12,834 nucleotides of DNA from a virus (lineage: Duplodnaviria; Heunggongvirae; Uroviricota; Caudoviricetes), in IMG/VR virus record IMGVR_UViG_2526164634_000024, positions 1 through 12,834 of that record. One strand, given 5' to 3'. This document shows, piece after piece, positions 1 to 12,834 of this stretch. A program made the position numbers and the translations under genes. The notes under the pieces are model-generated. The model was not told the origin of the DNA and searched no databases. It saw nothing but the letters and a program-made list of their open reading frames with translations. The first letter of the stretch is position 1. Each line of letters starts with the position of its first letter.

Positions 1-960
1 TTACTCCTTGTCCATTGCGTACAGCCCATTAACCAGAGCAAATTGTGGCACCCCGTCCGCGATGAAAGTCGCATTAACTCCGCAGGCTTCGCGGATAGCG
101 GGTGCCACAATCTCCGCCCCGCCACCGACAACCATCACCCGCCCGTAACCCGAAAAACCCGCCAGCGCGCGGATCACGCGTTGTTTCAGTGTTTCTTCCT
201 TTTCACGAATAACCGCCATCAGGCTGGCGTAATGCGCGTCATTGTGGATGTGCTGGCGCAGCCAGGCTTCATCATGGCGATGTTCGATAATGGTATTGGC
301 GATGTGGTGACTGGTGCGCATACCGTTAGTGGCCATCACCGACAGTACGGCATCGGCCATAAGAGAAACGCCTACGTGTGGATCGCAAAACACCTGGCTG
401 ATACCTGCCAGTTGCCCCTGAACCTTTGCCACATCCAGCGTGGTTCCGCCCAAATCCACAATCAGCAGGGATTCAAACGGACTCATGTCAGCCAGTGCTT
501 TAAAGCCAGCCGGAATGGATTCAGGCATAACCCGTACGTTACGGATAGTGAATGCTTCGCCGTTCTGGTACTCCACCGGGCGCATAACGTTCGCTTTTTT
601 GCGGTTGATGTTGGCCATGTCCGGCTGTGCGTTTGTGTCGAAATACTCGCTCAGTGGCAGGGTAACAACCACATCCACTTCCTGTGGCGTGATGTCTGAT
701 TTGACCAGCGCGTGATGAATGGCAATGACATTCACATCGCTGTACTGGTATTGCGTGTCGGTCGTCTGGACAAAGCGATCGCTGACCGGATCAAAACCAT
801 AGCGCACGCCATCAAGCATGTAGTTAGCAGGCTGCGAGCCACCGAACGGCGCAGACCATTCCGACTTGAAGCTGTTCGGGCTGATGGCGTTGCGGCGTTC
901 GCCGTTCTCAGTCCATGCCAGCTTGATGTTGGTGGAGCCGTCGTCGATGTAAATTTTCAT
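1..960 (-). CDS. ParM/StbA-family actin-like ATPase (plasmid-segregation type), complete, 319 aa
   Basis: ORF from ATG at 960 to TAA at 1-3; AAGGA Shine-Dalgarno 8 nt upstream. N-terminus MKIYIDDGSTNIKLAW plus PNSFK, YSDVNV..HHAL, VMPESIPAG, LIVDLGGTTLD and VVGGGAE blocks match actin-fold nucleotide-binding motifs as I recall them from R1/R100 ParM (StbA); size matches ParM (~320 aa). Confidence 0.8.
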   Translation of the reverse strand: MKIYIDDGSTNIKLAWTENGERRNAISPNSFKSEWSAPFGGSQPANYMLDGVRYGFDPVSDRFVQTTDTQYQYSDVNVIAIHHALVKSDITPQEVDVVVTLPLSEYFDTNAQPDMANINRKKANVMRPVEYQNGEAFTIRNVRVMPESIPAGFKALADMSPFESLLIVDLGGTTLDVAKVQGQLAGISQVFCDPHVGVSLMADAVLSVMATNGMRTSHHIANTIIEHRHDEAWLRQHIHNDAHYASLMAVIREKEETLKQRVIRALAGFSGYGRVMVVGGGAEIVAPAIREACGVNATFIADGVPQFALVNGLYAMDKE

Positions 961-991
961 GTCGGTTTTCCTTATGTTGATTAATTAATCG

Positions 992-1103
992 TTTACGGGA
1001 TTCTGAAATCCCGTTTTTGCCTGTTTTGTGCGCGCCTCATATATCGCTGCGCGTTTTTTGCTCATTTACGGGATTCGTGAGTCCCGTTTCTGTCTGTTTT
1101 TTG
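992..1103. repeat. Two imperfect ~39-bp direct repeats (992-1030 and 1065-1103, period 73 bp), each containing a short palindrome (CGGGATT-n4-AATCCCG; ACGGGA-n8-TCCCGT) followed by a T-rich tract
   Basis: Read directly: TTTACGGGATTCTGAAATCCCGTTTTTGCCTGTTTTGTG versus TTTACGGGATTCGTGAGTCCCGTTTCTGTCTGTTTTTTG (~33/39 identical). Copy 1 is intergenic between the replication gene stop and the ParM-like start; copy 2 lies in the last ~20 codons of the replication gene. Confidence 0.6.
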
Positions 1104-3877
1104 TTTCCACTGGTCAGGCCACCCCGCAGCAGGTCTGCTTTGCGGCTGGCGCGTTCAGTGGTTTCACTGATTCTCTGTGCGTGCTCTGCGTCGCGGATGG
1201 CGCGCAGCATGTCAGAAAGCACGGTAACGGGTGTTTTCATGGTGTTCTGGTCCTGCTGAAGTGTGGATGCCAGGCGTGCGGCGGCTTCAGGGTCTGATGC
1301 CCCCAGCTGTGCCAGATAGCTGGCGACCGGGTTATGGCGGATCTCCGTGCTGCTTACGCCATGATTACGGCTCAGACGCTGCCAGAGCTGCGTGATTCGG
1401 CTGTCCGGGCGGGTATCCGGTTTGCGTACAATTTCAAATCCCTGCGGTGCAATGATGCTGCCGTCAACGTACAGACTGCCGCCCCGTAACAGGTGCTGCA
1501 TCTGTTGTTCACCGATATGCAGGCCGAGAGATTCAGCAGACTCCCGCCATTCTTTAGCGAGTAACTCGTGGTTATCAGGCAAAGGCCGCTGCTGTTTGCG
1601 GCTCTGTGTCCAGTTCTGCATTTCATCGCTGCTGTTTTTTGCCTGTTTGTCACGAAGCGAACGCATCAGCGCCCGGCGTTCGTGCCGTTTCAGTGAGCGC
1701 ATCCATTCATTTACTTCAACGCCGTCAGGAAGCTGCGGCCACGGTGCTGGCCGTTCTTCCGGCTGTTCTGTCCCGTTGTTGCCTGTTTCCTGTACACGGG
1801 GACAGTTATTGCCACGAGTCCAAGGGGCGGCAGGGCCGCCCTGAAGGTCAAAACCATTTTCGCGGGCGCTGTCTTCCGCTTCCGGTTTACGTCTTACCAG
1901 CTTCCAGTTATCCGGATGTGTGCACACACGGGAAGACTCCCCGATGAGTGGTGACCAGATCCCGTAAATCTGTACGCTCTGTTCGCCGTAATCGTTCAGC
2001 TCATCTGCGAGGTCGTAGGCGGTGCGAATCAGGTAGTCTTTGCGTGGAACAAGTACGCCGCCCTGTTTTTCAATGTAGGAGGCAAAACACCCGGCATCAG
2101 CGGCAGCGAGCACTGCATCCATTGCGTCATCCTTCAGCCGTTGCGGGCCTTCCGGGTTGCGTGCCATCTGGCTGGCAAGGCGGCGCAGTTCACGCCACAC
2201 CTGACGGGAGGGGATGCCAAAGAACTGGAACTGGCGGACCCGGTGAAGGCGCGCCCAGCCGATGGCGCGCTCCACGCTCTCGGCCATTGATTTTCCGGTT
2301 TCGTGGTCAACGCGTGGCTTGCCCGTTTTCGGGTCGATACCATCCACGGCGCGGCTGTCCAGGTTCTTTCCGATGTAGGTGGCGATGTAGCTGGTCGGTG
2401 TGCCTTTTGAGCCGTCGACGTACTCTGCCTTAAAGCGTGGGGTAATATCATCACCCAGCTCGTGACGATCTTCCTGAATGGCAATATCGCGGGTGTGGGA
2501 CACAATGGTGTCGATTTCTTCCGGATGAGCAAAGACCATCATATGCCAGTGCACGGTGCCGTCATGGTGAGGCTCCACCGTGCGGATGCCATACCAGCGC
2601 AGGCCGTCGCGGTTCAGTTTCTTGCGGACCGCCGCAAAAAACGAGTTAACCAGGTAATCGCTGGAGTCGCGCATAGTGGCCCCGTTCCATTTGGGATTCG
2701 GATGACCGTTCTCCGTTGTTGCGTGGTATTTTGACGGGCAGGTGACAGTCAGAAACACCGCTCTGTCGCCACGGGCTTCGGCCAGAAGTTCCAGCCCCTT
2801 CATGGTGGCCATCATTTCTGCCTTACGGTGAACCGGGTTACTTACTCCCGCGTAATACACTGTCTCAAGATCAATCGTGAACCCGTCTTCGTTTTCCAGC
2901 ATGAAACTTTTCAGGAAATCGCGTGTTTTCTCGCGCTGTGCGCGAAACTCGCTTAACGCATCCTGGCTCAGATAGGGCGATGTTTTTCTGGAAACCAGAC
3001 AGGCGGCGCGGAGTTGTTCTTCTCTCCACTCGCAACGTAACAGCCACAGTTTGCGTTTCCACCATTCCGCACAGGTCAGGCGAAGGATTGCGCCCGGCAG
3101 CAGCTCCGTGTCTGGTTCGTTCCTCCGGCCTTTGTCTGTTGTCAGTGCGTCATAATGCGGAGGCATGGCGTGCAGGTGTAACGCCATGCGGGCCAGCATC
3201 TGATACGCCTTCAGCGTTACATCCATGGTCAGCTCGCCATCAGTCGCACCAAAGCCATCGCAGAGTTTTTCGAAGGTGCTGCTGAACATCGCCGCCGTCA
3301 TGGTGGCCAGCGTCTGTATCTGGTGTTTGTTGAGCTGCGGCAGGTAAAGCAAATCGTCCAGGCGTTCGCGTCCGGCAAGGGAGCGATAACCCGGTGTCAG
3401 CCAGTGTCCGTCAGTGCGATCCAGACGTTCGAATATTTTGCGCAGGGTTCCGCGTGCATAGCGTTCTGCCTGCCAGCTCTTTTTGCCTTTCCGGCGATCG
3501 ACTTCCTGTTTTTTGCGCAGGAAAGAGAGGTGGCGGCTCAGAGGTTCACGCAGATAAACGGGAAGCACCTTCAGTGTGGCAAAAGCACGGGCCACCGGGT
3601 CTTGTTCTGTTGCCTGACGCTTGCTGATGATGCTTTGTGCCAGCTTTTCACGCTGTCCGGCTTCCTCAAGGGATGCCATGAGTTTTTTACCCACGGTGGA
3701 TTGTGCGAAAAAGGCTTCCTCCTTCGCTTCCTGTTCTTCCAGAGCCTTTTTGTCTGCCTCAAGGTAGTAACGGATGGCGCGTTGCAGGTCGGTTTCAGTT
3801 TCCTGCCTGTGCTCCGTAAATCTGGCCGGATCAATGGCTGGCCGTGGTTCATTCCAGCTCCATGCAAACTCATTCAT
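1037..3877 (-). CDS. Phage P2 gpA-family rolling-circle replication initiator (HUH endonuclease), ~946 aa
   Basis: Contains VEPHHDGTVHWHMMVF (HUH-type motif, cf. P2 A VEPHHDGTPHWHMMLF as recalled) and SYIATYIGKNLD (cf. P2 A GYIAKYISKNID). Preferred start is ATG at 3877 (MNEFAWSW...), overlapping the upstream ORF stop as ATGA; the ORF-track start at 3904 is a GTG. Stop TGA at 1037-1039. Confidence 0.85.
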   Translation of the reverse strand: MNEFAWSWNEPRPAIDPARFTEHRQETETDLQRAIRYYLEADKKALEEQEAKEEAFFAQSTVGKKLMASLEEAGQREKLAQSIISKRQATEQDPVARAFATLKVLPVYLREPLSRHLSFLRKKQEVDRRKGKKSWQAERYARGTLRKIFERLDRTDGHWLTPGYRSLAGRERLDDLLYLPQLNKHQIQTLATMTAAMFSSTFEKLCDGFGATDGELTMDVTLKAYQMLARMALHLHAMPPHYDALTTDKGRRNEPDTELLPGAILRLTCAEWWKRKLWLLRCEWREEQLRAACLVSRKTSPYLSQDALSEFRAQREKTRDFLKSFMLENEDGFTIDLETVYYAGVSNPVHRKAEMMATMKGLELLAEARGDRAVFLTVTCPSKYHATTENGHPNPKWNGATMRDSSDYLVNSFFAAVRKKLNRDGLRWYGIRTVEPHHDGTVHWHMMVFAHPEEIDTIVSHTRDIAIQEDRHELGDDITPRFKAEYVDGSKGTPTSYIATYIGKNLDSRAVDGIDPKTGKPRVDHETGKSMAESVERAIGWARLHRVRQFQFFGIPSRQVWRELRRLASQMARNPEGPQRLKDDAMDAVLAAADAGCFASYIEKQGGVLVPRKDYLIRTAYDLADELNDYGEQSVQIYGIWSPLIGESSRVCTHPDNWKLVRRKPEAEDSARENGFDLQGGPAAPWTRGNNCPRVQETGNNGTEQPEERPAPWPQLPDGVEVNEWMRSLKRHERRALMRSLRDKQAKNSSDEMQNWTQSRKQQRPLPDNHELLAKEWRESAESLGLHIGEQQMQHLLRGGSLYVDGSIIAPQGFEIVRKPDTRPDSRITQLWQRLSRNHGVSSTEIRHNPVASYLAQLGASDPEAAARLASTLQQDQNTMKTPVTVLSDMLRAIRDAEHAQRISETTERASRKADLLRGGLTSGNKKQTETGLTNPVNEQKTRSDI

Positions 3878-4263
3878 GGCTGGTATCCCGTCACGCGCTG
3901 CCACTCCTGCGAGAAGAGGGCAGAAAGGCGGTTAAATTCAGCGGTGTATTCACTCAGCGAGGCACACCCGCCAGCAGTGCGATGCGCCAGCATTGCCGCA
4001 AATACGGAGGCCGGGGAGTCGTAATACGCCAGCAGTGATTCTCCGTGTGGTGTCAGGCAGTGCAACGCCAGCCCGTGTGGTGTGAAGTCCACGCGGTAGC
4101 AGTCGTCTACTGTGAAATAAAGGGTGTCTGCATTCTCCGGTTTTGTGGTGCGTGCTCTGTTGTCACGACCACGGATGTAGAGATCAAATAATCCCTGAAG
4201 AACGGGAGCCAGACGGGTGTCCTGTGTGCGCACCCATCTTGTGAAGTCATGAGCGTCAATCAT
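3874..4263 (-). CDS. Hypothetical protein, 129 aa, translationally coupled to the replication initiator
   Basis: ATG at 4263, stop at 3874-3876 overlapping the Rep start (ATGA); same strand and context as the early operon. No family recognised. Confidence 0.55.
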   Translation of the reverse strand: MIDAHDFTRWVRTQDTRLAPVLQGLFDLYIRGRDNRARTTKPENADTLYFTVDDCYRVDFTPHGLALHCLTPHGESLLAYYDSPASVFAAMLAHRTAGGCASLSEYTAEFNRLSALFSQEWQRVTGYQP

Positions 4264-4335
4264 GCTGCAATTCTCTTTACTACAGATGTGCGAAGGCCTC
4301 CCGCCGCAAGGTGCAGGAAAGGCCCGGAACAGGAA

Positions 4336-4566
4336 TTAATGGAGTTTGTTTTGCTGCTGGAAGAGTTGTTGCAGCTCGCGCAGATCATCCGCCAGATAGC
4401 TGAAAACAGAGGCGGAATAGATGTTCGATAGCGCGTGGCTGCGCTCATGCAGCATATTGATGTGCATGATTTGCGCGACGCGTGATGCGCGGAAAAGTCT
4501 ACGGTTGATTTCAGTCTGGATGTGACGACGCGCAGCGTATGCGCGCTGTTGTTTGCGGTTTGCCAT
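4336..4566 (-). CDS. Hypothetical small basic protein, 76 aa
   Basis: ATG at 4566 preceded by AAGAGG Shine-Dalgarno at 7-nt spacing; R/K-rich N-terminus. No family recognised. Confidence 0.55.
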   Translation of the reverse strand: MANRKQQRAYAARRHIQTEINRRLFRASRVAQIMHINMLHERSHALSNIYSASVFSYLADDLRELQQLFQQQNKLH

Positions 4567-4745
4567 GGTGTGGCCTCTTTGCTCGGTGATAGAAATAGCT
4601 CACCATCCAGAGTTGAGAATCTCGGGGTGGCGAGACGTACAGGGTTCTCAACACCGGAGAGCAAAGAATCCGGCCCGACCGAAGTCGGCCCCGTACGCCC
4701 CGCCATAATTCTGACGCGAAAAAGACGTGGCAATACAGTACGCAC

Positions 4746-4766
4746 AAAAAAACCGCTGGCGCGGTT
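4746..4766 (-). terminator. Candidate intrinsic terminator on the minus strand (6-bp GC stem AACCGC/GCGGTT, 4-nt loop, followed by a 7-U run)
   Basis: Plus-strand sequence AAAAAAACCGCTGGCGCGGTT reads on the minus strand as hairpin followed by TTTTTTT. The stem is short, so this is tentative. Confidence 0.35.
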
Positions 4767-4838
4767 ATGCGCTTTGCTCTGTATCGGGTTGAGAATCCCG
4801 GCACCCGTTTTATGAGGTGCAGCGGAAATGTAACCTGA

Positions 4839-4867
4839 CCGATTGCGGCATGGCAAGCGGTTTTTTT
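4839..4867 (+). terminator. Candidate intrinsic terminator on the plus strand (8-bp stem with one mismatch, 6-nt loop, 7-T run)
   Basis: CCGATTGC-GGCATG-GCAAGCGG-TTTTTTT read directly. No credible plus-strand protein gene lies upstream, which suggests a plus-strand non-coding or antisense transcript. Confidence 0.35.
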
Positions 4868-4888
4868 GTGTGTGCATGTTCTGGTTTC

Positions 4889-5188
4889 TTACTGGTTCAG
4901 AAAAAAATCAAAAACCTTGTCAATGCGTTGCAGCAGCTCTTGCTGCATTGCTTCCGGCGTTTCCGGTTCGCCAGGTGCCCCCAGCGTTGCGCAGAAATCA
5001 GCGATTTCATGATGGAGCGTCAGGCGAATGGCAGGAGCCGTGGTTCTGGCGTGCTCCAGCTGATCCAGCAGTGCCAGCACAGCAGACGGCGAGAGCATTG
5101 CGCGAAATGCCAGTAATTTTTGAGGAGTTGCCATTCGTTGCAGGGCAAATGCCAGTTCGCGTAGCTTCTGGTGGTTGATGGTGCTCAT
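4889..5188 (-). CDS. Hypothetical protein, 99 aa
   Basis: ATG at 5188 overlaps the stop of the upstream ORF (ATGA); part of the leftward early operon. No family recognised. Confidence 0.55.
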   Translation of the reverse strand: MSTINHQKLRELAFALQRMATPQKLLAFRAMLSPSAVLALLDQLEHARTTAPAIRLTLHHEIADFCATLGAPGEPETPEAMQQELLQRIDKVFDFFLNQ

Positions 5189-5451
5189 GTTCTGGCTTCC
5201 TTCAGTAGCTGGTTAAACATGTGAGTAAGTGGATTGCTACACCCGAACGGCATCGGGTTTACTTGGTAAGAAGCCTGGCCTCCAGTTTTGCGAGCGCGAC
5301 CACCTGTGCTGCGGTTTGTTCTGATGACTAAGCCGCCGCGCCAAAGTTGGCGTAACTCAGCATTAATGGCTGTGGTTGGAGTATTCAGTGCTGCGGCGAT
5401 CTCTCCGCCGCTACACCCCGGATGAGTAGCGATGTAGTCCAGAATGGTCAT
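5185..5451 (-). CDS. Putative small winged-helix DNA-binding protein, 88 aa
   Basis: N-terminal ILDYIATHPGCSGGEIAAALNTPTTAINAELRQLWRGGLV pattern resembles winged-HTH recognition modules; start overlaps the upstream stop (ATGA). Family assignment is tentative. Confidence 0.5.
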   Translation of the reverse strand: MTILDYIATHPGCSGGEIAAALNTPTTAINAELRQLWRGGLVIRTNRSTGGRARKTGGQASYQVNPMPFGCSNPLTHMFNQLLKEART

Positions 5452-5651
5452 CTGCGTGGCTCCTGTACTTGTCGGATAAGATTCACCCGCGCCACGTTGG
5501 TGGCGCAGAAATAAGTGCCGTCAGTGAGGTAGATGTGGTGCGCATCCTTTTCCGAACGATGTTTGTCGATAGTGGTAATCAGGCGTTCGTCGACCTCGTA
5601 TTCGCGCCCTCTGGAGGTAAAGCGAACGACGGAAAAATGCTTAATTGCCAT
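5448..5651 (-). CDS. Hypothetical protein, 67 aa
   Basis: ATG at 5651 with strong AAGGGGG Shine-Dalgarno upstream; stop overlaps the next start (ATGA). Confidence 0.55.
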   Translation of the reverse strand: MAIKHFSVVRFTSRGREYEVDERLITTIDKHRSEKDAHHIYLTDGTYFCATNVARVNLIRQVQEPRR

Positions 5652-5674
5652 TGCGCCCCCTTTGTCCAGTAACC

Positions 5675-6091
5675 CTATGCGTTAAATACGGCACGTTGCG
5701 CGTCATCAATGAATACAGCTTGAGAGCGTTCTATCAGGCGGAGATTTGTCAGAAGCTCAGACTCTTTTGTGTGGTAAGGCGTTATCAGGTATTTGCCGTG
5801 CAGTTCGGCAATAATGGTGTATTGCGGCATCATTGCTGAACCAAGAATATAAATGCAGCGTCCAATGCTGGACGGATTCATGGCTGCAACTGTTGACTGT
5901 GTTTTAAGAGTGTCGATTTCTTTGCTCTGTTCCTCAATAATTTTGGCTGCGTCAGCGGTGATTTTTGCAATGGTCAGTGCGTGAAGTGCTGCCATATGTT
6001 GGCTACGCTTCACGGCATCTTTAGCCGTTTCATCTTCCGCTTCTGATATTTTTTTTAATGTGTTGATAATGCCTTCTTCTTTTGTGTTCAT
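5675..6091 (-). CDS. Hypothetical protein, 138 aa (N-terminal coiled-coil-like)
   Basis: ATG at 6091 preceded by GGAGA Shine-Dalgarno at ~6 nt; no family recognised. Confidence 0.55.
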   Translation of the reverse strand: MNTKEEGIINTLKKISEAEDETAKDAVKRSQHMAALHALTIAKITADAAKIIEEQSKEIDTLKTQSTVAAMNPSSIGRCIYILGSAMMPQYTIIAELHGKYLITPYHTKESELLTNLRLIERSQAVFIDDAQRAVFNA

Positions 6092-6183
6092 TTTATATCT
6101 CCGTTATTTACGTGTGCGAATACCTCCGCGAATGCGGATAGTTTTCAGGTTTTCGGGTTTAATCTGGTGTTTTGTTTAAGCTG

Positions 6184-6297
6184 TTATTCGTCAGTGAAAA
6201 AGCGTTCAATCTTTTTTACTGAATGAATAATTCGCATAATCCCAATGGCGCAGGCCACCGAAATAATCAGAACAAGCCATGAGATAAATATACTCAT
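6184..6297 (-). CDS. Candidate small hydrophobic membrane peptide, 37 aa (MSIFISWLVLIISVACAIGIMRIIHSVKKIERFFTDE); not in the supplied ORF track
   Basis: Hand-translated: ATG at 6297-6295 overlaps the TGA stop of the upstream 80-aa ORF (ATGA), runs to TAA at 6186-6184. One predicted transmembrane helix followed by a basic/acidic tail. Confidence 0.4.
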   Translation of the reverse strand: MSIFISWLVLIISVACAIGIMRIIHSVKKIERFFTDE

Positions 6298-6536
6298 GCG
6301 ATATTCCCCAGCTTATACGGTTCAATATGTTCCCCGCATTCTGCGGCACAGATCAGCTCGGAAAGTTCGTTAAGTGCATCCAGATCATCAGCGTAAAAAG
6401 CGACGTCATACAAACTCCGGATTGCCCTGGTCAATGAGTCACGAGCTGCACGTTCAGCATGAGCGCCTGATGCACTTAAGCGAAAATAAAATCGTTCAAG
6501 TGCTTTGTTAATGAGAGTTTTATATTCTTTGCCCAT
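6294..6536 (-). CDS. Hypothetical protein, 80 aa
   Basis: ATG at 6536 with AAGGG Shine-Dalgarno upstream; coupled to the small downstream peptide ORF. Confidence 0.55.
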   Translation of the reverse strand: MGKEYKTLINKALERFYFRLSASGAHAERAARDSLTRAIRSLYDVAFYADDLDALNELSELICAAECGEHIEPYKLGNIA

Positions 6537-6547
6537 CGCAACGCCCT

Positions 6548-6826
6548 TTAATCTGCTTTCTGAATTTCAGCTTCTGAATCCATACAAATAATTTCGATAT
6601 ATGGTTCATCGCCATTAACCTGACGTGCCTTTTCAGCTTCGCTAATGATTCCGTGTACAGTCTGGTACGGAAGTTCTACGGTCAGGCGCGTGCCGTTCAG
6701 ATAAACGTAAGTAGCTGCATTTTTTTCTGATGGGACAACTCCATCAATAGCTGATGCGCGCAATAACAGTTCACCGCGAAAATCAATAAAACGGATAAAT
6801 ACACCTTGTGCATGCTCTTTGGTCAT
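6548..6826 (-). CDS. Hypothetical protein, ~92 aa (start taken at internal ATG 6826 rather than the ORF-track start at 6925)
   Basis: Start at 6826 follows the stop of the upstream ORF (6837) by 10 nt with a GGTG upstream; the 6925 start would overlap the upstream gene by ~90 nt. Confidence 0.45.
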   Translation of the reverse strand: MTKEHAQGVFIRFIDFRGELLLRASAIDGVVPSEKNAATYVYLNGTRLTVELPYQTVHGIISEAEKARQVNGDEPYIEIICMDSEAEIQKAD

Positions 6827-6836
6827 AACGCACCTG

Positions 6837-7175
6837 TTATAAATCAGTCTGTTTAATAAAACTTTGCCCGCGAAGCAGACGATCAACCGTGCGAAGTGCT
6901 TCGTACAATGTGAAATCCTGTCCAAACTGAGTGTCGCCGTTGCTCAGAGCAAAAATGCGGTTTCCGGTAAATGGGTTGCGTTGGCATCTGTGAACCACGA
7001 TTCCAGCTTTCTCAATCAGCCAGGTGTGTTCACCAATTTGTTTTACGGGATGGCCATCAGGTGTAGCGTGTGTTTCGCTCAGGCTGTAGCGGGAGTTACT
7101 ACGTGATGCACTGGTAGCGAAACGGTTAGCGTGGCGTTCCGTTCCGGTACGAAAATTATGGCGTTGCTTCAGCAT
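6837..7175 (-). CDS. Hypothetical protein, 112 aa; second gene of the leftward early operon
   Basis: ATG at 7175 with GAGGTG Shine-Dalgarno at 7-nt spacing, 14 nt after the Cox-like stop. Confidence 0.5.
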   Translation of the reverse strand: MLKQRHNFRTGTERHANRFATSASRSNSRYSLSETHATPDGHPVKQIGEHTWLIEKAGIVVHRCQRNPFTGNRIFALSNGDTQFGQDFTLYEALRTVDRLLRGQSFIKQTDL

Positions 7176-7189
7176 AAAATTACACCTCG

Positions 7190-7468
7190 TTATTTTGTCA
7201 TCTGCACGTATTTCTCTGCGCTCCTGATGGTTTTCAGGAATATTGCGAAAAGGTTTACTTTGCGTTTTGTGTTTCTTCCTTCTTGGGTGACGGGGATTAC
7301 TGATCTGTCGGCCTGCCTTCTTACCGCAAGAATGCTTTGATTCGTGCGTTTCGCGTAATCTTCCAGGCTTTCTTCAAGCACAGGTAACCCATGCTCATCA
7401 CGGTATGGGTAGAACGCCGCCAAACGCTCAAAATCCGCTTGTTCGTATGTGTTCAGGACTTTTGCCAT
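7190..7468 (-). CDS. Cox-like small HTH excisionase/early regulator, 92 aa
   Basis: First gene of the leftward operon, divergent from the C-type repressor as in P2; length matches P2 Cox (~91 aa); segment YAKRTNQSILAVRRQADRSVIPV resembles the P2 Cox region FAKLIGKSTGAVRRMIDKGKLPVI as recalled. Positional and weak-motif evidence only. Confidence 0.5.
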   Translation of the reverse strand: MAKVLNTYEQADFERLAAFYPYRDEHGLPVLEESLEDYAKRTNQSILAVRRQADRSVIPVTQEGRNTKRKVNLFAIFLKTIRSAEKYVQMTK

Positions 7469-7563
7469 GATGTGATAACCTATTCAATCTGGTGCTATTT
7501 GTGGCTTTTTGTGGCGTCAAGTGGTACTCAACTGATAACCAATATAGTATTCAGGTGCACACC
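7469..7563. promoter_or_regulatory. Divergent control region between the Cox-like and C-type repressor genes; contains direct repeats TTTGTGGC x2 (7498-7505, 7508-7515) and TGATAACC x2 (7471-7478, 7534-7541)
   Basis: Repeats read directly. P2 C repressor is known to recognise direct rather than inverted repeats at the early promoter. Promoter hexamers here are not confidently assignable by eye. Confidence 0.5.
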
Positions 7564-7875
7564 ATGTCAATAGAGATATCAAAGAAGCTAAAAGCAATTC
7601 GAGAATCTGAGGGACTTAGCCAGGCAAAGTTCGCGGATTCAATAGGTATTGCGGTTGGTACAGTTAAGCAATATGAGACTGGTATTAGAGGTGTGGGGAC
7701 GGAGGTTTTACTGAAAATCACAATGCATCCGAACTTTAAAAAATACACCACGTGGTTGATGAGTAACGAAACAAATGAGGCTGCTGGGCAGATCAGTCCG
7801 TCTCTCTCCCCTGATGGGCCAAAAAGCACATCGCCTTCTCAAAAACCCCGCAAGACTGGCACACAGCCCGGCTAA
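7564..7875 (+). CDS. P2 C-type immunity repressor (XRE-like HTH), 103 aa
   Basis: Start at internal ATG 7564 (MSIEISKK...) with AGGTG Shine-Dalgarno at 7 nt. HTH region LSQAKFADSIGIAVGTVKQYETG and C-terminal ...PNFKKYTTWLMSNE...AAGQISP resemble P2 C (..PQFTKYTLWFMTNQ...SGQIAP) as recalled. Located directly upstream of int, as in P2. Confidence 0.8.
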   Translation: MSIEISKKLKAIRESEGLSQAKFADSIGIAVGTVKQYETGIRGVGTEVLLKITMHPNFKKYTTWLMSNETNEAAGQISPSLSPDGPKSTSPSQKPRKTGTQPG

Positions 7876-7924
7876 TCATGGAGCGCTGGGGGCATGGTGG
7901 TCTTGTAACGCTGGGGTTTCACGA

Positions 7925-8902
7925 ATGAGCATAAAATCAATTCCGGGAGGGTATCTTCTTGACATGCGCCCGGAGGGGCGTAAAGGCAAACGCATTCGCA
8001 AAAAATTTAAAACGAAATCGGATGCAGTTTTATATGAGCGGTGGGTGCTGGCGCAACAGCATAACAATGAGTGGAAAGGAAACTCCATTGATCGCCGTCC
8101 GCTGTCAGTGCTTATTGACTTGTGGTGGAAATACCACGGCCAGCTAATGAAGTCAGGGCATAACACGCGCCTTAAATTGCTGCGCTTGAGTGAGGCAATG
8201 GATGACCCGTGCGTGCATAAACTTAATACAACGATGCTCACCGAGCTACGTGTGTCCAGGATAGAGCAGGGGATACAGCCCAGCACCATAAATCGAGAGA
8301 TTGGGGCGTTAAGCGCGATGTTTACCGCACTCATCTCATCCGGCCATTTTCTTAACGATAACCCCGTTCAAGGCCTTAAAGGAATGAAGGTTAACGAGCG
8401 CGAAATGGGATATCTGAGTAAGTCTGAATGTGTTCAGTTGCTGGATGCACTGGCTGAAAATCCCGATGAACGACTGGCTGTCGAAATCCTTCTGTCGACC
8501 GGGGCGCGATGGGGCGAGGTAGCGGCACTGGAGCAGCGCCGTGTTCTTCATTGTCGAATCACTTTTTCAAAAACGAAGAACAGCAAAAACCGTACCGTTC
8601 CTATTTCTGAAAGCCTGTTTGAAAAGATCAAAAAACGGGGCGGGAAACTGGTGTTTCCGACGCTGGATTATTCATTGGTTCGCGATGTCATCAAAACGGT
8701 CGCACCTGATGTTCCTGACGGCCAGGCTGTTCATGCGCTGCGCCACACCTTCGCCAGTCATTTCATGATGAACGGCGGCAATATTCTGACGCTCCAGAAA
8801 ATTCTGGGGCACGCAAAGATTCAGACAACGATGATTTATGCCCATCTTGCGCCGGATTACCTGCAGGATGCGGTGAGGTTTAATCCACTAGGAGGTGCTT
8901 AA
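7925..8902 (+). CDS. int: Tyrosine integrase, P2 Int-like, 325 aa
   Basis: Start at ATG 7925 (MSIKSIPGGY...). Conserved catalytic-region motifs LSTGARWGE, HALRHTFASHF and MIYAHLAPDY (catalytic Tyr); strong overall resemblance to P2 Int as recalled (GKRIRKKF, TGARWGE, PISE, NGG.I.TLQ.ILGH). Confidence 0.9.
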   Translation: MSIKSIPGGYLLDMRPEGRKGKRIRKKFKTKSDAVLYERWVLAQQHNNEWKGNSIDRRPLSVLIDLWWKYHGQLMKSGHNTRLKLLRLSEAMDDPCVHKLNTTMLTELRVSRIEQGIQPSTINREIGALSAMFTALISSGHFLNDNPVQGLKGMKVNEREMGYLSKSECVQLLDALAENPDERLAVEILLSTGARWGEVAALEQRRVLHCRITFSKTKNSKNRTVPISESLFEKIKKRGGKLVFPTLDYSLVRDVIKTVAPDVPDGQAVHALRHTFASHFMMNGGNILTLQKILGHAKIQTTMIYAHLAPDYLQDAVRFNPLGGA

Positions 8903-8904
8903 GA

Positions 8905-9267
8905 GTGAAGTTTCATTTAGATGAACTTAAAAGAATGGCAACGCTCGATAATTTTGCGCGTTTTCTCAATGAGTCGTCTACGAATGAAAAATGTTTGTCG
9001 TGTGGCGATACGGATATGTACATGTATTTGACGAATATTGTTGAGGTGGGGCCTGAGCCGAAAACTGCTGAGGAGTGTGATTTAGGCACTTTTGTTATGC
9101 TTGATTACATCGGTCCATTTACTGGGTATCCGGGATATGAGGGACATGATCGGGAAAATATCCATAACTATGAATTCCGACTTACCTGTAACAGATGTGG
9201 GTTTGTTCATCGTTACTCGGCCCGGGCCTTTATGAACTGGGTAGGCAAGCAGGGTGATGAGAAGTGA
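8905..9267 (+). CDS. Hypothetical Cys-rich (putative Zn-ribbon) protein, 120 aa
   Basis: GTG start at 8905, 2 nt after the int stop, with GGAGG Shine-Dalgarno 9 nt upstream (inside the int 3' end). Two CxxC pairs (CLSCG near residue 30, CNRCG near residue 100). Visibly AT-richer than the flanking int. No family recognised. Confidence 0.55.
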   Translation: MKFHLDELKRMATLDNFARFLNESSTNEKCLSCGDTDMYMYLTNIVEVGPEPKTAEECDLGTFVMLDYIGPFTGYPGYEGHDRENIHNYEFRLTCNRCGFVHRYSARAFMNWVGKQGDEK

Positions 9268-9704
9268 TGGCAGAGAATGTTGCACATATTTCGCGGTTCA
9301 GAAAAAAGAAAGAGAATGCCTATAATGTATCCAACAACCAAGTAACAGGAAGTGGTAATGATGGAGGTGATGGCATGAATGACGACCTTGAACGGCGGGT
9401 CAGTTGCCTGGAAAGTGATGTGACTGAAATCAAAAACAACCTGATTACTCTCACCACAAGAAGCGAATCCTTTGCTACCAAATCTGATGTACTGGAGATT
9501 CGCGAAGGGTTGAGGCTTGAGATGGCAGAATCGCGCCAATCCCTGAAGTCTGAGATGGCTGATTTACGCCAGTCTCTGAAAGTTGAGATGGCTGAGCATC
9601 GTACTGAACTTCAGAAATCATTTGCAAATCAGACTTGGTTACTCACAGGTATTGTCCTGTCTGCGATGGCCGTGCTTGTGGCTGTGGTTACTGTTATTAA
9701 GTAA
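9267..9704 (+). CDS. Hypothetical coiled-coil protein with C-terminal transmembrane anchor, ~145 aa (alternative start at 9375 giving ~109 aa)
   Basis: Start overlaps the upstream stop (GTGATGA). Internal ATG at 9375 has a perfect GGAGG at 7-nt spacing. Three tandem 11-residue repeats (EMAESRQSLKS / EMADLRQSLKV / EMAEHRTELQK) and hydrophobic C-terminus LLTGIVLSAMAVLVAVVTVIK. Confidence 0.55.
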   Translation: MAENVAHISRFRKKKENAYNVSNNQVTGSGNDGGDGMNDDLERRVSCLESDVTEIKNNLITLTTRSESFATKSDVLEIREGLRLEMAESRQSLKSEMADLRQSLKVEMAEHRTELQKSFANQTWLLTGIVLSAMAVLVAVVTVIK

Positions 9705-9829
9705 ATTTATGGCGGCGATATGATCCACAAAGTGACCACATCCCTGTTATTTGTTGTGGTTGGCTGTGTTTTTGTGTGTCTGTAAGTCTTTGATAATTAT
9801 CTAACTTGTTGATTTTTACTTGTGTTTAT

Positions 9830-9845
9830 GGCCGCTTGCGCGGCC
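9830..9845 (-). other. Perfect GC hairpin GGCCGC-TTGC-GCGGCC located 19 nt downstream of the acrB stop
   Basis: Read directly. No U-tract follows on the acrB strand, so it is not a canonical intrinsic terminator; it may be a 3' stabilising stem-loop or part of a recombination/junction region. Confidence 0.4.
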
Positions 9846-9864
9846 TTAGTGATTACACGTTGTA

Positions 9865-12834
<2,970 letters not shown>

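Follow-up and report, generated by a model that had tools for sequence, protein, structure and literature searches.

The window analyzed here is the whole 12,834-nt stretch of the virus record IMGVR_UViG_2526164634_000024; its source is contig AIHD01000019.1 (assembly GCA_000250275.2), and the junction described below lies well inside that contig. The left 9.7 kb comprises parM, gpA, early genes, a repressor gene, an integrase gene, and two small ORFs, and the right end is occupied by acrB; all the ORFs in the window are intact. An actin-like segregation gene (ParM/StbA, 1-960) adjoins the gene for the replication protein gpA (1037-3877), an arrangement seen here in an integrating P2-like phage. 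In relatives, a Plasmid_stab_B gene directly follows parM, and the source contig breaks inside that gene. Gene calls conflict between assemblies for 4260-4877 and 4336-4566 (minus strand): many assemblies carry a 205-aa protein matching regulator PHROGs, the exact sequence of which was indexed in 4599 blocks, and the source assembly carries an overlapping 76-aa ORF in another frame with the Pfam 'Derepression' domain (PF25738).

The first ORF of the leftward early operon (7190-7468, minus strand; 92 aa, phrog_11533, function unassigned) occupies the position of P2 cox and is preceded by a strong promoter-like site (7570-7541, minus strand; TTGACA-18-TATATT, 11/12). An immunity-repressor-like HTH gene (7564-7875, plus strand; 103 aa, HTH_3, phrog_147 transcriptional regulator), also called as a gene in the source contig, lies 5' of the integrase gene, as in P2 C-int. 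The P2-type tyrosine integrase (7925-8902, plus strand; 325 aa) matches Int_N (2e-28) and Phage_integrase (6e-20), and its domains above threshold are PF00589 (catalytic) and PF24624 (N-terminal arm-binding). It is 49% identical to P2 Int, with R195, K218, H270, R273, H296, and Y305 invariant. Between the integrase gene and the P arm, a position that is empty in P2, lie the cargo gene orf120 (8905-9267, plus strand; phrog_4293, function unassigned, no Pfam domain) and orf145/146 (9264-9704, plus strand; phrog_9415, function unassigned), the latter being the phage gene nearest the att site. All the lysogens at the canonical ihfA-btuC site described below contain orf120. The orf145/146 gene has a 33-nt tandem repeat (9517-9595) encoding 11-residue repeats, and its product has a hydrophobic C-terminus. 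The two genes may represent lysogenic-conversion cargo.

When window positions 1-9864 were compared with isolated phages, all the matches fell within 1-7154, a segment 92-94% identical to PhiR44_2, vB_EcoM-569R5, and P88 (61-68% of the query). The module at 7155-9829 (immunity, integrase, and att) was without a close match in isolated phages. The closest integrase in the phage records was 56.5% identical, those of P2 and Wphi were 48-49% identical, and none of the isolated phages in the phage collection had an integrase more than 57% identical. In the public collection, a protein exactly matching the integrase was indexed in 405 blocks. Look-ups by the integrase or the 205-aa early protein returned only prophages at the canonical site or at unrelated sites; the source contig was reached through gpA alone. 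On gene content and similarity, the element is classified as a P88-like, P2-type temperate prophage.

The stop codon of the last phage ORF at 9704 bounds one side of the junction interval, and the TGA stop codon of acrB (minus strand, C-terminus ...VDHH) at 9865-9867 bounds the other, in agreement with the original prediction that acrB ends at 9865 with phage genes less than 160 bp away. The GC hairpin that the prediction had placed at 9830-9845 was found exactly there as the perfect sequence GGCCGC-TTGC-GCGGCC. The window holds the 3' 989 codons of acrB (9865-12834) and stops where the first start codon follows a frameshift located beyond the window edge; this end coincides exactly with the start of the 989-aa acrB ORF. 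Near codon 24, acrB of the source contig has a run of 7 G, compared with 6 in intact strains (about positions 930-940 of L033, roughly 110 nt beyond window position 12834), and thus the gene was called as 52 aa + 989 aa. The 989-aa call recurs in 53 blocks of the public collection, and the extra G reflects either an error in sequencing the homopolymer or a frameshift that is real and recurrent.

In prophage-free E. coli, tomB and hha lie 546 nt beyond acrB, where the prediction had expected them, and neither was present among the open reading frames of the window. The prophage-free order after the acrB stop codon is 19 nt, the hairpin, a spacer of ~500 nt, tomB, and hha, and on the acrB sense strand the hairpin is followed by TTTTTTATGCAT. 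Of 5425 complete E. coli genomes, 5414 had an intact match to an 801-nt probe over the tomB-acrB spacer and the terminator. The chromosomal match to the window started exactly at 9830 in 5425 of 5426 complete E. coli genomes, with 98-100% identity from there through acrB, and the match to the phage arm in other lysogens extended to about 9838-9847 (window 9265-9838/47 is 99.5% identical to E110019). From the ends of these two matches, the breakpoint falls within the hairpin.

An insertion between acrB and its usual neighbors, as originally predicted, is borne out by the alignments with the empty tomB-acrB region and with the phage arm elsewhere; they place the breakpoint, and with it the att copy expected in or near 9705-9864, at 9830-9836 inside the hairpin. 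The other option offered, a different host background, is ruled out by the chromosomal match from 9830 and the number of intact empty sites. We read the interval 9705-9864 as an attR junction (P-O-B'), in which 9705-9829 is the phage P arm and the DNA from 9837 onward is unbroken E. coli chromosome. The B' side from the exchange point to the acrB stop codon (9837-9864) is unaltered and identical to that of empty-site strains. The acrB junction was found in none of the 5426 complete E. coli genomes, the exact window junction had no match in the GTDB species representatives or in IMG/VR, and nothing relevant on prophage integration at acrB/tomB was found in the literature; a paper on the diversity of P2-like phages leaves integration sites aside. 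Insertion-site counts were obtained from junction probes in place of BLAST match ends; classing by match ends (window 9840 versus 9847) was dropped, as the end point shifts with nearby SNPs.

The phage side of the junction (9705-9829) is the arm kept in attR and is identical to that in btuC-site lysogens; from predicted sites, it has the features of a P2-type attP arm. Putative arm-type Int repeats were located at 9721-9729 (TGTGGATCA, minus strand), 9732-9740 (TGTGGTCAC, minus strand), and 9755-9763 (TGTGGTTGG, plus strand), comprising two minus-strand TGTGG(A/T)(T/C)CA direct repeats 11 nt apart and a third copy on the plus strand. The stretch 9721-9763 is the sole 45-nt span of the window with three TGTGG. 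IHF sites were predicted from consensus matches at 9783-9795 and 9802-9814 (both minus strand); the entire 12.8-kb window has three such matches, against 0.41 expected over its full length, and two of them are thus in the P arm. The arm consensus of the P2 group is tgTGGaCa (PMC3448106), and the P2 sequence has the same repeat doublets after int. The P' arms of VCSW5 (L005) and of L034, a contig described below, show the same repeat layout as the P arm, so that tgTGGaCa-type repeats are predicted on both arms together with IHF sites, the arrangement of a P2-type attP.

The same arm and integrase were traced to another chromosomal site. The identical integrase was found in 10 places, all adjoining btuC, one of which is E. 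coli SE11 (L012); the genome paper of this strain lists a P2-like prophage in the interval between btuC and ihfA, with 25 nt duplicated (PMC2608844). The module of the integrase, orf120, and orf146 with the following 125 nt always ended in ...CTTGTGTTTAT-GGCCGC across many genomes, and the P arm in all the btuC-site lysogens ended in GTGTTTAT-GGCCGC. In VCSW5, attL reads ihfA...CTAAAAA-GGCCGCTTTGCGGCCTTTTTTCTTT-CAGTAACC and attR reads GTGTTTAT-GGCCGCTCTGCGGCCTTTTTTCTTT-TCACTGTC...btuC; the empty attB of K-12, in the ihfA terminator, reads AAAAA-GGCCGCTCTGCGGCCTTTTTTCTTT-TCACTG. The canonical lysogens are flanked by a ~25-nt repeat, GGCCGCTYTGCGGCCTTTTTTCTTT, and the canonical attR junction was present in 304 of 5426 complete E. 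coli genomes, as counted with a 150-nt probe that was at least 80% covered. These junctions identify the ihfA terminator, between ihfA and btuC, as the normal attB of the integrase.

Two further settings of this phage type were observed. The identical integrase and P arm also occur beside a btuC whose flank differs (CAAGTAAAGGATACCCACCG), and the hairpin there has an ATT loop (L006 11906, L019, and L032 1187-1221); this variant locus presumably belongs to another enterobacterial species, in which case the ihfA-terminator site is used across hosts. In ETEC1738, the phage type lies inside a lambdoid prophage at tRNA-Ser near hyaA (L004 5431-5460; L040 about 49370 and L041 about 8913), between the lambdoid lysis genes and the terminase small-subunit gene. 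Its target hairpin, AAACCATAAA-GGCCGCTCTGCGGCCTTTTT-CATGTT, has 20 nt in common with the core, and the junction was present in one of the 5426 genomes.

For the other end of the acrB prophage, the left junction was predicted as tomB flank, phage core, and P' arm, and public collections were scanned for TGCATAAAAAAGGCCGC-N3-4-GCGGCCTTTTTT. A single contig, L034 (IMGVR_UViG_2526164634_000023), was returned from IMG/VR; the metagenome scan gave five matches, all of them unrelated terminators with different flanks, and the L034 junction was found in none of the complete E. coli genomes. L034 has the order tomB-spacer-GGCCGCTATGCGGCC-P' arm and reads AAAAAA-GGCCGC-TAT-GCGGCC-TTTTTTCTTT-CAATAACCGATTG at the junction. 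Its tomB-acrB spacer is 99.5% identical to that of empty-site strains, and the genes beyond the core (hok, ogr, gpD, sheath, and tube) are those of a P2-like left arm. The host flanks of L034 and of the window are closest to the same reference loci. When the 478-aa cargo protein of L034 was looked up as an exact sequence, only two other contigs were returned, one of them at ihfA, and L034 itself was not returned. By its layout, L034 represents the reciprocal B-O-P' junction type and is a candidate attL for the source strain, in which the left junction is expected to be tomB-AAAAAAGGCCGC-TAT-GCGGCCTTTTTTCTTT-P' arm.

The gap between ogr and gpD in P2-like prophages holds variable cargo (L034 1883-3319 and L041 4398-7795); in P2-like phages, it is known to be a hotspot at which anti-phage genes are carried. 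L034 carries there the 478-aa ORF, which has no Pfam domain and 891 homologues at E<=1e-30 (named examples are from Vibrio, Pseudomonas, Klebsiella, Shewanella, and Aeromonas), and the ETEC1738 prophage carries the HxsABCD radical-SAM system.

The empty site, L034, and the window were aligned to delimit the exchange. Left of GGCCGC, attL is chromosomal and attR is phage; right of GGCCGCT, attL is of phage type (3-nt loop and T-run) and attR is chromosomal (4-nt loop and TTAGTG). The loop and the right stem of the hairpin at 9830-9845, which appears to serve as the att core here, are accordingly of bacterial type. GGCCGCT (9830-9836) is the sole block identical in the acrB attB, attL, attR, and the inferred attP, and strand exchange probably took place within this putative overlap segment. 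The true cleavage sites could lie further right if the overlap spans the loop and the heteroduplex was resolved by replication. The matching direct repeat that the original prediction expected at the other end of the element was found in L034, the candidate attL, but its exact length is only 7 nt (GGCCGCT), after which GCGGCCTT is displaced by 1 nt.

The acrB site, GGCCGCTTGCGCGGCCTTAGTGATT, has 7 contiguous identical nt, a 4-nt loop versus a 3-nt loop, and then GCGGCCTT; it lacks the ~25 nt of identity to the attP core GGCCGCTYTGCGGCCTTTTTTCTTT that characterizes the canonical attB. With only 7 contiguous nt, versus about 25 at the normal site, it is regarded as a secondary site. A search of IMG/VR for a free attP (P arm, core, and start of P') returned only another attR with an adjoining btuC-like gene and an ATT loop, and attP was therefore reconstructed from attL and attR as, most plausibly, GTGTTTAT-GGCCGCT-ATGCGGCCTTTTTTCTTTCAATAACC. 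The attB expected on excision is AAAAAA-GGCCGCTTGCGCGGCC-TTAGTG. The loop base is polymorphic among the canonical lysogens (TCT, TTT, and ATT), so that these lysogens give no independent fix of the exchange point. As a marker of phage or host origin, the loop base (TCT or TTT) was considered and rejected, being polymorphic on both sides.

Judging from both junctions, it is highly probable that the tyrosine integrase of a P88-like, P2-type phage, whose usual target is the ihfA terminator, here used the acrB terminator hairpin as the partner of attP. This would be an Int-mediated attP x attB recombination at a secondary site, expected to occur at low frequency, with the exchange confined to the one block that all four sites have in common. 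The same 7-nt block would have set the orientation of the insertion. On its other strand (GGCCGCGCAAGCGGCCTTTTTT), the acrB hairpin offers a better right-side match to the canonical core (12 nt of GCGGCCTTTTTT), but the seventh base of its left block is G where the core has T. The phage is inserted in the orientation with the perfect GGCCGCT, as expected if GGCCGCT is the direction-setting overlap.

L034 also weighs on three other explanations of the junction. This phage type is very common at ihfA-btuC, and the window holds one arm only, with the contig breaking inside the prophage; both would suit a chromosomal rearrangement in which attR of an ihfA-btuC prophage recombined with the acrB hairpin (attB2) by inversion or translocation, without fresh integration. 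Such an attR x attB2 event predicts tomB-core-btuC, whereas L034 has tomB-core-P' followed by hok, ogr, gpD, and tail genes, the product expected of attP x attB2, and we therefore consider a rearrangement very improbable. It is barely credible that the assembly misjoined the end of a prophage contig and the acrB region through the GC hairpin common to both. The source assembly is indeed a draft, its prophage is interrupted by a contig break, and its acrB differs in a homopolymer. However, 7 exact nt, or 15 nt if an indel is allowed, is not enough sequence for an assembler to overlap, the joining point coincides exactly with the phage recombination core, and L034 is an independent contig with the reciprocal junction.

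It is rather unlikely that the window records a fossil junction and no functional att site, in which only the right arm from parM to attR was left after an old insertion and a deletion. The source contig does end 39 nt past parM, and deleted derivatives are known at the canonical site (L007, and E110019 with IS3). Against such a remnant, every window ORF is intact, the integrase exactly matches the protein indexed in 405 blocks, and the left arm seen in L034 at this site is intact; moreover, a contig break is also what would result if the genome contained another, related P2-like prophage. We speculate that a second related prophage might explain both the contig break and the use of a secondary site.

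If the integrase used the acrB hairpin as proposed, the insertion would have divided the terminator of acrB. The empty site, AAGGCCGCGCAAGCGGCCTT followed by TTTTAT, was called by the scan as a minus-strand intrinsic terminator; in the window, the stem is followed by AUAAACAC, and no terminator was called. In the acrB transcript, the 6-bp GC stem is kept and UUUUUUAU is changed to AUAAACAC, so that the GC stem-loop lacks the direct U-tract of an intrinsic terminator. On this comparison, the hairpin at 9830-9845 is identified as the stem-loop of the acrB intrinsic terminator, used as an attachment site. The stem appears to have been retained and the U-tract lost from acrB; the U-tract half is now part of attL and makes up a strong terminator there that looks bidirectional.

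At the ihfA-btuC and lambdoid sites, the gene beside attR is directed away from the prophage, whereas acrB is directed into it. The transcription of acrAB is stress-inducible via MarA, SoxS, and Rob. Read-through from acrB would first cross orf146, orf120, int, and the repressor gene in the antisense direction and then enter the early operon (promoter-like site at 7570-7541) in the sense direction. If this occurs, efflux-pump induction could alter prophage stability or integrase and repressor levels, and transcription continuing from int could in turn weaken acrB expression. A likely safeguard is that Rho would terminate the antisense RNA, which is untranslated. If GGCCGCT alone sets the target and orientation, any terminator containing GGCCGCT would be a potential landing site. 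That both hold, i.e., that acrAB read-through alters the prophage (stability, integrase or repressor levels) and that GGCCGCT alone determines target and orientation, seems distinctly unlikely.

The analysis fixes the prophage boundary to within 7 nt and suggests that a common P2-like integrase of E. coli and other enterobacteria can use another terminator hairpin with minimal identity. It provides a natural data point on the core identity needed by the integrase and on the block that probably forms the overlap region. It also points to a possible change, in one lineage, in how the 3' end of acrAB is processed, an efflux operon of clinical importance. The acrB insertion has no counterpart in more than 5400 complete E. 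coli genomes, yet it is mechanistically ordinary; the process is a known one, and the current understanding of site-specific recombination is unchanged.

Compared with the P88/Xuanwuvirus group (Peduoviridae), window positions 1-7154 are 92-94% identical over about two thirds, including parM and gpA, and the difference lies in the 7155-9829 module, to which isolated phages offer no close match. Secondary sites are also known for P2: Barreiro and Haggard-Ljungquist reportedly described in 1992 a preferred site, locI, along with locII, locIII, and locH. The general features of P2-type Int/attP (PMC3448106) are shared by the window. In both, the integrase (49% identical) is of the heterobivalent tyrosine type, arm repeats of the tgTGGaCa type flank a short core, the arm contains IHF sites, C-int is the gene order next to attP, insertion is intergenic and not in a tRNA gene, and partial core matches are usable. 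Unlike in P2, the core of this phage type is a terminator hairpin (GGCCGCTYTGCGGCCTTTTTTCTTT), two extra ORFs separate int from the P arm, and the secondary site has only 7 contiguous common nt. The secondary attachment sites of lambda (Shimada, Weisberg and Gottesman, summarised in PMC6379469) are similar in that rare sites are used by Int-mediated insertion and that the core resemblance lies mainly in the overlap segment, but lambda has another branch of the integrase family and another core. A further parallel is PP_SE11-4 of SE11 and its relatives, with the identical integrase, the same P arm, orf120, and orf146 on a P88-like backbone. That group occupies the ihfA terminator with a 25-nt duplication (PMC2608844), whereas the prophage of the window lies in the acrB terminator, its exact repeat is 7 nt long, and the flanking host gene points into attR and not away from it.
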